From a virus (lineage: Duplodnaviria; Heunggongvirae; Uroviricota; Caudoviricetes): 45,266 nt of DNA. Location of the stretch: IMG/VR virus record IMGVR_UViG_2531839130_000013; one strand, given 5' to 3'. Both the position numbers and the translations under genes were made by a program. Under the pieces are notes generated by a model that did not search any database, was not told the origin of the DNA, and saw nothing but the letters and a program-made list of their open reading frames with translations. Positions 19,417-19,938 of this stretch are shown piece after piece (positions within the stretch are counted from its first letter, which is position 1; the number at the start of each line of letters is the position of its first letter).

Positions 19417-19599
19417 ATGAGGAAGTATAAACTAATTCTGTTGAGGTTGACTATGAAAAACGGCCTTGAATTGAAAGCGCCCGTAACTGATGACATCAGC
19501 AGAGCGGTGGCTTTTGCCATTAAGTGGGTGGCTGTCGGTATCGCTGTGTCTCCGATGCTGTATGGGATGGCAAAATTGATCATTGCTGTGAAATCGTAA
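19417..19599 (+). CDS. Small membrane protein (60 aa)
   Basis: AAGGAGAAC SD; C-terminal hydrophobic segment. Confidence 0.35.
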   Translation: MRKYKLILLRLTMKNGLELKAPVTDDISRAVAFAIKWVAVGIAVSPMLYGMAKLIIAVKS

Positions 19600-19616
19600 G
19601 TGGGGCAGGGGTAAAT

Positions 19617-19751
19617 ATGTCAGATAGCATTATAAAACTGGCGCGAATTCTCTGTGTGGTTGTTGGCCTTTCATTTTCAGCAATGTTGGTTGCCATTTTC
19701 ATTTCCACCACCTGGCGAGTATTGAGCTTATCCGGATTGATTGGTGGATAG
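19617..19751 (+). CDS. Small membrane peptide (44 aa)
   Basis: ATG after SD-like GGGGCAGGGG; single TM helix (ILCVVVGLSFSAMLVAIFI). Confidence 0.3.
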   Translation: MSDSIIKLARILCVVVGLSFSAMLVAIFISTTWRVLSLSGLIGG

Positions 19752-19755
19752 TGAG

Positions 19756-19938
19756 ATGAAGCGAAAACACTGGACACACAGAATGCCGCGAACGGCGGCG
19801 AAATGGGCACTGGTAGCGATACTGGTGCCTTTTTTATTGGTGGGATGCGTCAGCCTGGATAAGGCGCGCCAGCTTTTCGATACAGCTTCTCAGGTCTGCA
19901 AAATTGTCGACGGTGTCCGGCATTGTATGCAGAACTGA
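19756..19938 (+). CDS. Small lipoprotein (60 aa), possible o-spanin-like or accessory lipoprotein
   Basis: Signal peptide with lipobox LLVGC; two further Cys in the short mature part. Confidence 0.4.
   Translation: MKRKHWTHRMPRTAAKWALVAILVPFLLVGCVSLDKARQLFDTASQVCKIVDGVRHCMQN

Follow-up and report, generated by a model that had tools for sequence, protein, structure and literature searches.

The window analysed here is a 45,266-nt stretch of viral DNA (IMG/VR record IMGVR_UViG_2531839130_000013) that carries a phiP27-type lysis cassette of E. coli prophages, consisting of two candidate holin genes, a GH108 endolysin gene, a hairpin, and three small ORFs named A, B, and C (Table 1). A Q-like antiterminator is encoded upstream (14330-14704), which gives the cassette a late-operon position. 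An earlier note on this DNA had described ORFs of 60, 44, and 60 codons 3′ of the endolysin gene, each with a ribosome-binding site and without the nesting seen in lambda Rz/Rz1. All three were recovered on the plus strand, and their coordinates leave none nested in another. A Shine-Dalgarno-like stretch can be read 5′ of each start, namely AAGGAG 5′ of 19417 (A), GGGG/AGGGG 5′ of 19617 (B), and GGTGGA 5′ of 19756 (C). The identical three ORFs are called by NCBI PGAP in E. coli genomes, where they are annotated as hypothetical proteins.

Table 1. Features of the lysis cassette and of the A-B-C region, in positions of the window.
Feature	Positions	Strand	Description
Holin candidate 1	18049..18441	+	130 aa, multi-pass; PF16931 Phage_holin_8, E = 2e-22; phrog_198 holin
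Holin candidate 2	18431..18709	+	92 aa, 3 TM segments; PF05449 Phage_holin_3_7, E = 3e-21; phrog_217 holin
Soluble endolysin, GH108 muramidase + PG_binding_3	18711..19256	+	PF05838 and PF09374, each about E = 1e-26
Hypothetical antisense unit	19345..19453	-	putative RNA of about 70-75 nt that would pair with the start and Shine-Dalgarno stretch of A and terminate at the hairpin
Hairpin with A-run and T-run, bidirectional-terminator-like	19350..19389		5′ boundary of the A-B module
ORF A	19417-19599	+	60 codons; candidate small inner-membrane peptide; phrog_1115
ORF B	19617-19751	+	44 aa, hydrophobic; partner of A; phrog_4906
ORF C	19756-19938	+	60 codons; prolipoprotein; terminal lysis-cassette gene, spanin slot; phrog_7528

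A, B, and C are conserved phage families under purifying selection. Their PHROG matches (E = 4e-41 for A, 7e-19 for B, and 4e-37 for C) are all to families of unknown function, and pN/pS in the annotated frames was 0.28, 0.36, and 0.24, respectively, against 0.6-2.2 in the other two frames. These matches, together with the low pN/pS, set the three apart from chance ORFs. Pfam gave no informative match for any of them at E ≤ 1, the sole hit (B to DUF3930, E = 0.03) being taken as noise. NCBIfam and PADLOC searches likewise returned nothing informative for A, B, or C, and the PADLOC defence models had zero matches for these three, for ORF D, and for the upstream TerB and DUF3927 ORFs.

The description of A and B as single-helix peptides and of C as a lipobox protein with extra cysteines was borne out by hydrophobicity and lipobox analysis. 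C is the sole lipobox ORF within the window. It begins with an unusually well conserved signal peptide of 30 aa that ends in the lipobox L-V-G-C31 and is followed by a helical mature part, also of 30 aa. Gly30 and Cys31 are invariant, as are the additional Cys48 and Cys57/58 in both subfamilies, and residue +2 is V, A, T, S, or G but never Asp (alignments A1 and A3). The mature helix is amphipathic (hydrophobic moment, 0.57) and carries a net charge of about +1; AlphaFold2 models C as a single long helix at moderate confidence (pLDDT 68). At the C-terminus (...VRHCMQN) a hydrophobic segment is absent. As in an o-spanin, a lipobox signal peptide is combined with the lack of a Lol-avoidance Asp at +2, and judging from the sequence Cys48 and Cys57/58 would be periplasmic cysteines able to form intermolecular disulfides. 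A Tat signal in the long n-region was considered and rejected, because members of the family do not share the twin arginine. An HMM search with the C alignment against 1.84 billion representatives yielded 22 clusters at 50% identity and no tie from C to any known family, and a profile search of genome contigs with the diverged C subfamily found nothing.

Further comparison of loci revealed that C closes the phiP27-type cassette as its fourth gene, after the holin(s) and the endolysin. In 80 IMG/VR loci it lies 3′ of holin-holin-endolysin wherever upstream DNA is present, and the endolysin that precedes it is either GH108 or an M15 peptidase. C often abuts the endolysin gene. The commonest layout has 17 nt between the end of the M15 gene and the start of C, and in one locus (L025) the GH108 stop and the C start overlap. 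A diverged C-like lipoprotein is found behind an M15 endolysin and a lambda-S-type holin; C accompanies two endolysin types and three holin sets. The genes 3′ of C vary (ORF D, terminase type). The same gene order is present in the cultured phages phiP27, phiSTEC1575-Stx2k, and vB_Apl-pPE4, and the C cassette is widespread in prophages of E. coli, Salmonella, and Citrobacter. It includes the Stx2e phage phiP27, and about 6% of complete E. coli genomes carry C, Stx-converting phages among them. Most members share at least 70% identity and the synteny comes largely from closely related E. coli prophages. Given these close relationships and the 22 clusters, few independent events stand behind the synteny of C. 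The junction between endolysin and C also takes unrelated inserts, including a KilA-N protein, an HNH-like ORF, and phrog_33497.

The position of C is that of a spanin gene, and a recognisable Rz/Rz1 pair had already been reported as missing from the locus. Pfam agreed: it detected Rz (PF03245, E = 1e-50) and Rz1 (PF06085, E = 4e-21) in a control locus (L164) and neither of them in A, B, or C. Moreover, no Rz-like type II protein is encoded in the 45-kb window, and no i-spanin (a type II protein with a sizeable periplasmic domain, encoded beside or overlapping the o-spanin) was found in the window or in the C loci. Run on 38 S-R-A-B-Rz loci, a feature-based finder of spanin pairs gave 32 positives, versus 2 among 125 C loci. 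Both of these C loci carry a C pseudogene, truncated in L119 and with in-frame stops in L145, so that exclusivity with decay is documented by two loci. C and Rz/Rz1 pairs are almost never found together. An i-spanin hidden in an alternative frame of the M15 endolysin gene (a 47-aa ORF, MMLWMLW...) was also considered; it was rejected because GH108 cassettes lack this ORF and because, in other loci, a hydrophobic N-terminus is missing.

The ortholog of C in phiP27 has been entered among the o-spanins, its 30-aa mature part being given as 83% helical, and phiP27 was classed as having a separated two-component spanin (Kongari et al., 2018; PMC6139136). For the i-spanin of phiP27, the published ORF begins with TTG and matched no PHROG family. 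On the opposite strand runs an ORF with a match to phrog_36812 (E = 5e-19), and of 80 C loci only 3 contain the region. By these sequence features the published i-spanin looks like a shadow ORF, which suggests that the published "two-component spanin" call for phiP27 is half wrong.

The hairpin, A, and B form a mobile module that is separate from C. In Stx-phage-like cassettes A-B sits between R and an intact, Pfam-recognisable Rz/Rz1, here it is found in the order GH108-A-B-C, and from most C cassettes it is missing. PhiR5_2 is one phage with the S-R-A-B-Rz order. B always adjoins A, and natural B-A fusion proteins occur (e.g., P0210 and P0213). Each peptide has one strongly hydrophobic stretch, at residues 30-58 in A and 11-29 in B, leaving about 2 residues beyond the helix in A and at most 14 in B, and hence no periplasmic domain in either. 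The C-terminal helix of A, AFAIKWVAVGIAVSPMLYG, is nearly invariant (alignment A2), and codons 13-29 have a pN/pS of 0.02. Over codons 1-12, pN/pS is close to 1, and another ATG at 19453 is preceded by its own GAGG, so that A could be 48 aa long. The 60-aa form is nevertheless favoured because a paralog, A′, keeps KYKR..LRL at the protein level. Holin profiles from Pfam, PHROG, and NCBIfam matched neither A nor B, the format of a small TM peptide being unspecific, and no homology of either to proteins of known function was found in Pfam, PHROG, NCBIfam, or PADLOC.

With the module beside intact Rz/Rz1 in Stx-like cassettes and missing from most that carry C, A and B do not qualify as C's spanin partner; gene context and topology reject both as an i-spanin. 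The earlier note had offered a separated spanin pair or accessory membrane peptides as explanations of the three genes. The first fails for A and B on the same grounds of context and missing periplasmic domain. For C it holds in part, with the spanin slot and the published o-spanin listing on its side and no i-spanin partner found. The second fits A and B, which might conceivably be small toxins. Since the endolysin-C junction accepts several unrelated inserts, A and B may be further cargo at this site. C on its own and the hairpin-A-B module are distinct entities; the three ORFs do not make up one unit.

The terminator that had been noted 3′ of the endolysin gene is a real hairpin, composed of an A-run, CCCCGGCTG...CAGTCCGGGG, and a T-run. 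It folds with a free energy of -23 kcal/mol (z = -3.7), none of 200 shuffles folding as well, and was overlooked by a simple consensus scan on account of its bulge and loop. Every cassette type has it 5′ of A or A′, and in L119 it is found there even away from a lysis cassette. Its outer stem is invariant, and the inner stem and loop are swapped as a block with complementarity kept. An origin of the hairpin from insertion of ant (KilA-N), as in vB_Apl-pPE4, was rejected, no hairpin being found 5′ of that gene. Neither by eye nor by scan did the plus strand from the hairpin to A show a convincing -35/-10 pair of a sigma-70 promoter.

The minus strand raises the question of whether hairpin-A(-B) could be a sar/ant-like or type I toxin-antitoxin-like unit, in which A, possibly along with B, would act as a membrane toxin whose translation an antisense RNA of about 70-95 nt would repress. 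Such a unit would involve only A and B and would fit with the explanation of C given below. A promoter-like element, TAGTCA-18-TATACT, lies on the minus strand at 19453-19424 (with TATAAT in some loci), and paralog A′ has the same layout (TGGACA-18-TATACT). The hairpin always accompanies A or A′ and has U-runs on either strand, the minus-strand fold reaches -29.9 kcal/mol (z = -4.4), and G-U-type changes preserve pairing in the minus-strand RNA only. The DNA from the hairpin to codon 13 of A is nearly invariant, and A and B are small and hydrophobic, as toxins of this kind could be. As in P22 sar/ant (RF00262), a bidirectional hairpin stands 5′ of the gene and an antisense promoter-like element lies in its first codons; Rfam gave a full-length match to P22 sar RNA, and 12 nt of the loop, CUGUUACCGCAG, agree exactly with the sar consensus. 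That match is however below threshold, scoring 23.2 bits where the gathering score is 43, the promoter scan gave no more sites than expected from shuffled sequence, and the -10 coincides with the conserved codons K-Y-K, so that protein constraint could explain it. Furthermore, covariation is thin, with a double change in 1 of 18 pairs, and RefSeq genomes annotate no ncRNA there. Unlike in P22 sar, an unrelated 23-nt insert stands in place of the 5′ hairpin of sar, and the downstream gene encodes a membrane peptide instead of an antirepressor. Sar-like antisense control of A and B is speculative, and the toxin-antitoxin-like reading as a whole appears unlikely, if less so than the alternatives for C discussed below.

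For C, the main reading is that it is a partner-less o-spanin-like lipoprotein for the outer-membrane step of lysis, with A and B as accessory inner-membrane peptides; we consider it about equally likely to be right or wrong. C would be made as a prolipoprotein from the Q-dependent late transcript. It would probably be lipidated at Cys31 and sorted by Lol to the inner leaflet of the outer membrane, a destination suggested by a residue +2 that is never Asp. Through the two conserved cysteines in its amphipathic helical tail, disulfide-linked oligomers could form. Once the holin has fired and the endolysin has cleared the cell wall, C would disrupt the outer membrane or promote its disruption. 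It would do so without an inner-membrane spanin partner, as an orphan o-spanin or in the manner of a colicin lysis protein, and not as part of a periplasm-spanning Rz/Rz1 complex. A and B would be two single-pass inner-membrane peptides, probably acting together, whose module inserts between the endolysin gene and the outer-membrane lysis gene of unrelated cassettes. Their most likely role would be to modulate the membrane step or the timing of lysis, and the terminator together with a cis-antisense RNA may gate A expression.

C would have to work by a new mechanism, because its 30-residue tail cannot span the periplasm and lambda Rz1 by itself is non-functional. It is conceivable, though we hold this only tentatively, that C represents a new class in which a lipid-anchored, disulfide-capable amphipathic helix of about 30 residues breaches the outer membrane alone, with A-B as an antisense-gated module that tunes lysis.

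Several known systems resemble C in part. Colicin lysis or bacteriocin release proteins have a mature part of about 30 residues and are linked to envelope permeabilisation, their action depending on the phospholipase OMPLA. Like C, the colicin lysis proteins (PF02402 Lysis_col) are short prolipoproteins with an LxGC lipobox. C differs from them in having no PF02402 match at E ≤ 1, two extra cysteines, an amphipathic helical tail, and a gene that belongs to a phage lysis cassette instead of a colicin operon. With lambda Rz/Rz1 and the phiP27 entry (PMC6139136), C shares the format of a small outer-membrane-type lipoprotein with conserved periplasmic cysteines that is encoded by the last gene of the cassette. 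Unlike lambda Rz/Rz1, it has no i-spanin, no PF06085 or PF03245 match, a tail too short for the periplasm, and no prolines, versus 11 in the lambda-type Rz1 of the control locus. Unlike unimolecular spanins of the T1 gp11 type, it has no C-terminal TM anchor. The phiKT gp28 disruptin, from a spanin-less phage, is strongly cationic and has no lipobox (bioRxiv 10.1101/515445). It is, like C, a small amphipathic helical peptide proposed to disrupt the outer membrane alone. C differs from it in the net charge of its mature part, its lipobox signal, and its predicted lipid anchor, and the two have no sequence relationship. For A and B, a precedent for extra factors at the holin/endolysin-release step is Lcc6 of LambdaSo, which is mentioned alongside the Mu releasin and has an N-terminal TM, a 43-aa cytoplasmic tail, and a gene far from the lysis genes (bioRxiv 10.1101/2024.01.23.576932). 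Lcc6 is a small single-pass membrane protein of similar size. The likeness lies in format; A differs in its C-terminal TM, and both A and B are encoded inside the cassette.

Two other explanations of C were weighed. The stronger holds that C, with or without A and B, is late cargo unrelated to envelope disruption and that the cassette has no outer-membrane disruptor. C might then be a receptor-masking or superinfection-exclusion lipoprotein such as T5 Llp or lambdoid Cor, or might protect progeny from debris. Small disulfide-containing outer-membrane lipoproteins with exclusion roles are known, and C has no sequence match to any lysis family. The interval between endolysin and terminase is a known site of miscellaneous genes, several unrelated inserts having been found there, and many phages lack a recognisable spanin (about 13% of those in a 2018 survey; PMC6139136). 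Cargo would not, however, be expected to stay at the endolysin end while everything downstream varies, to overlap or abut the endolysin stop in some loci, or to track the cassette over two endolysin types and three holin contexts. Decay of C in the two loci with a real spanin pair speaks against it as well, and exclusion lipoproteins usually adjoin receptor-binding genes. We therefore regard late cargo, including these exclusion or protection roles, as rather improbable. Less probable still is an o-spanin C with an unrecognised inner-membrane partner (one of the holin-like proteins, A, A′, or B, or the Rz of another resident prophage): the lipobox, the outer-membrane sorting residues, conserved periplasmic cysteines like those of the T4 PseT.2 family, the spanin slot, and the two-component classification of phiP27 by Kongari et al. 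would suit it, but the published i-spanin ORF looks spurious, A and B are absent from most C cassettes, the holin set differs between C contexts, no type II protein with a periplasmic domain is encoded near C, and the summed periplasmic length falls far below that of any tested spanin.

Under the main reading, C is a concrete candidate for the outer-membrane step in phages without a recognisable spanin. To our knowledge, the phiKT disruptin is the only alternative outer-membrane factor characterised for spanin-less phages. The A-B module adds two conserved membrane peptides inside both pinholin/SAR-endolysin and holin/soluble-endolysin cassettes. If the reading of C is true, C would add to the known solutions for the last step of Gram-negative lysis, alongside two-component spanins, unimolecular spanins, and disruptin, and a 30-residue outer-membrane-destabilising lipopeptide would be relevant to lysis biology, to Shiga toxin release, and as an outer-membrane-permeabilising tool.

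The window was found to be a nearly complete lambdoid prophage of the E. coli type, in which three small ORFs (A, B, and C) lie between the endolysin and terminase genes, inside the Q-dependent late operon. An earlier note had described them as two single-helix membrane genes and a lipobox gene with extra cysteines, located after an intrinsic terminator. This description was borne out. The same ORFs are called hypothetical proteins by PGAP in E. coli genomes, and they match PHROG families (A, phrog_1115, E = 4e-41; B, phrog_4906, 7e-19; C, phrog_7528, 4e-37), all already catalogued as being of unknown function. 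Purifying selection acts on each of them, but only in the annotated frame (pN/pS of 0.28, 0.36, and 0.24 for A, B, and C, against 0.6-2.2 in other frames). A and B have one hydrophobic helix each, C contains a canonical lipobox (LVGC31) plus two more cysteines, and a strong hairpin (-23 kcal/mol, z = -3.7) follows the endolysin.

Features of the lysis region in the window and of two arrays of A-related ORFs in other loci
Feature	Position	Strand	Remarks
Q-like antiterminator	14330-14704
DNA methyltransferase and two tRNA genes			between Q-like antiterminator and TerB/DUF3927 insert
TerB/DUF3927 two-gene insert	17382-17956	+	between tRNA genes and first holin
TerB-domain protein	within 17382-17956	+	141 aa; PF05099
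DUF3927 peptide	within 17382-17956	+	50 aa; two hydrophobic segments
Holin	18049-18441		PF16931
Holin	18431-18709		PF05449
Endolysin	18711-19256		soluble; GH108 + PG_binding_3
Candidate cis-antisense small RNA	19345-19453	-	promoter-like element, hairpin, Rfam match below threshold
A	19417-19599		60 codons
B	19617-19751		44 codons
C	19756-19938		60 codons
ORF D	20110-20460	+	116 aa; phrog_1935
Terminase genes	from ~21087		lambda-type
L164 array	3786-4350 of L164		A-like 70-aa ORF, 83-aa B-A fusion, 28/57-aa A' ORF; between SAR lysozyme and Rz/Rz1
L119 array	4980-5450 of L119		A, unrelated 49-aa transmembrane ORF, A'; away from lysis genes

Several neighbouring features were also recorded. The TerB/DUF3927 insert gave no match in PADLOC, and the pair is also present in phage vB_Apl-pPE4 (L168) and several other loci. 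The recorded host of this phage is Actinobacillus pleuropneumoniae; its lysis region and C gene are nevertheless 92-94% identical to those of E. coli prophages, so that either the assigned host or the provenance of the phage may merit a second look. Between tRNA-Met and tRNA-Arg, a weak tRNA-like match (17040-17113, +; 23.7 bits against a gathering score of 29) may represent a decayed third tRNA. ORF D, which has no Pfam match, is found downstream of C in roughly half the loci, phiP27 among them, and is not tied to C. The early-left region encodes a DUF1482 protein with a hydrophobic N-terminal segment (3986-4228, -; E = 5e-25), which has no relation to the late lysis cassette and presumably resembles the Qin-prophage lytic protein YdfD. 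Amid the tail genes is an Ail/Lom-family outer-membrane protein gene (40925-41536, +; PF06316, E = 3e-49), a typical lambdoid moron.

Mapping of 80 loci encoding A showed A-B to be a separate, mobile module that has a conserved hairpin of its own, which is new here. The pair is always found directly 3' of an endolysin, but the cassettes are of two unrelated types. One, that of the window, is holin-holin-GH108-A-B-C; the other, exemplified by phage PhiR5_2, is pinholin (PF04971), SAR lysozyme (PF00959), A-B, and Rz/Rz1. Complete spanins thus occur alongside A and B, and most C cassettes lack A-B. B adjoins A in every case, natural B-A fusion proteins exist (P0210 and P0213), and L164 contains tandem paralogs; these observations suggest that A and B function together. 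In other loci a shorter paralog, A' (…AFAIRLVAVAVLIWAVRWW), is found directly 5' of C or of Rz. Unrelated inserts (a KilA-N protein, an HNH-like ORF, and phrog_33497) are likewise accommodated where the endolysin adjoins the outer-membrane gene, and members of the A/B peptide family seem to multiply, fuse, and degenerate at this junction. The hairpin-A-B region was detected in 296 of 5426 E. coli genomes.

The hairpin travels with A or A' in all contexts, even at a locus where the module is not part of a lysis cassette. Its outer stem is invariant, while the inner stem and loop are swapped as a block with complementarity preserved. Since an A-run and a T-run flank it on opposite sides, it could act as a bidirectional terminator. 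For A and B only, and compatibly with the main reading of C, an antisense-controlled toxin module is a tentative alternative. A minus-strand promoter-like element (TAGTCA-18-TATACT) lies within the first codons of A, with TATAAT in some loci and TGGACA-18-TATACT in A'. The predicted RNA of ~70-95 nt (fold z = -4.4) would span the start of A or A' together with its ribosome-binding site. It matches the P22 sar RNA of Rfam over its full length but below threshold (23.2 bits against a gathering score of 43), and a 12-nt loop segment is identical in both. Moreover, G-U-type substitutions in a small 5' hairpin preserve pairing in the minus-strand RNA alone. However, a promoter scan found sites not enriched relative to shuffles, the -10 element overlaps conserved K-Y-K codons, and covariation is thin, so that an antisense RNA opposite the start of A is possible but doubtful.

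C was found to belong to the lysis cassette; that it tracks such cassettes across endolysin and holin types is also new here. Among 80 viral contigs encoding a C homolog, every one that includes the upstream DNA has C behind two holin genes and an endolysin. This endolysin is either a GH108 enzyme, as in the window, or, as in phiP27, an unrelated M15 peptidase. In the layout seen most often, 17 nt separate the end of the M15 gene from C with no gene between, and in L025 the GH108 stop codon and the start of C overlap. Some loci retain C although their holins share only ~31% identity with those of the window, and the 3' neighbours differ from locus to locus, ORF D being absent from some and the terminase being of several types. 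When 1.84 billion representative proteins were searched with a profile, only 22 clusters emerged; among them is a diverged subfamily in which the lipobox and both cysteines are retained, and one of its members follows a lambda-S-type holin and an M15 endolysin. The same gene order occurs in the cultured phages phiP27, phiSTEC1575-Stx2k, and vB_Apl-pPE4, where C is unannotated or "hypothetical", and C-like DNA is present in 316 of 5426 complete E. coli genomes. Set beside this synteny, the proposal that C is cargo without a link to lysis, such as an exclusion lipoprotein, appears rather unlikely.

C is the sole lipobox ORF in the 45-kb window, where no Rz-like type II membrane protein was found, and C loci contain no lambdoid Rz homolog. 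Pfam identifies Rz and Rz1 in a control locus and gives no match for A, B, or C. A feature-based search for pairs in which a lipobox ORF overlaps, or is embedded in, a type II membrane ORF was positive in 32/38 control loci versus 2/125 C loci, counts that are redundant because some contigs were counted twice. Both positive C loci carry a C pseudogene, truncated and fused in L119 (5452-5727) and interrupted by several in-frame stops in L145 (~6555-6737). Thus C appears to lack a spanin partner and almost never co-occurs with an Rz/Rz1 pair; both findings are new here. The phiP27 C ortholog is already known as an in silico o-spanin, its coordinates being those of the o-spanin in a "separated" two-component spanin with a periplasmic length of 62 residues, the shortest of all (Kongari et al., 2018, PMC6139136). 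The i-spanin published for phiP27 is a 64-codon ORF with a TTG start (L002, 3670-3864, +). It was rejected as a real partner and is probably a shadow ORF, because it has no PHROG match, lies antisense to an 89-aa ORF (L002, 3654-3926, -; phrog_36812, E = 5e-19), and occupies a region found in just 3/80 C loci. That C has some other, unrecognised i-spanin partner is improbable.

The start of C was assigned to the ATG at 19756 because Met10 is not conserved. This gives a long signal peptide (30 residues, n-region charge ~+5), whose conservation exceeds that of the mature part. In family alignments Asp is never found at residue +2, and C is therefore predicted to be sorted to the outer membrane, presumably as a lipidated protein. 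The 30-residue mature part is predicted to be helical (AF2, pLDDT 68) and is amphipathic (hydrophobic moment 0.57, reached by 2.6% of shuffles), with no proline and nearly neutral charge. Its two invariant cysteines, spaced 9-10 residues, recall the paired cysteines of T4-type o-spanins (Kongari et al., 2018, PMC6139136). C resembles o-spanins in format, but differs from lambda Rz1 in sequence and composition and is unlike the phiKT disruptin, which is cationic (bioRxiv 10.1101/515445).

Taken jointly, the most likely reading, to which we give about an even chance, is that C is the outer-membrane component of the cassette and acts with no inner-membrane partner, and that A and B are accessory inner-membrane peptides. 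C might act on the outer membrane in the manner of colicin lysis proteins, or its amphipathic helices, linked by disulfides, might directly destabilise the inner leaflet. Such a role for C in lysis is directly testable by lambda spanin complementation.
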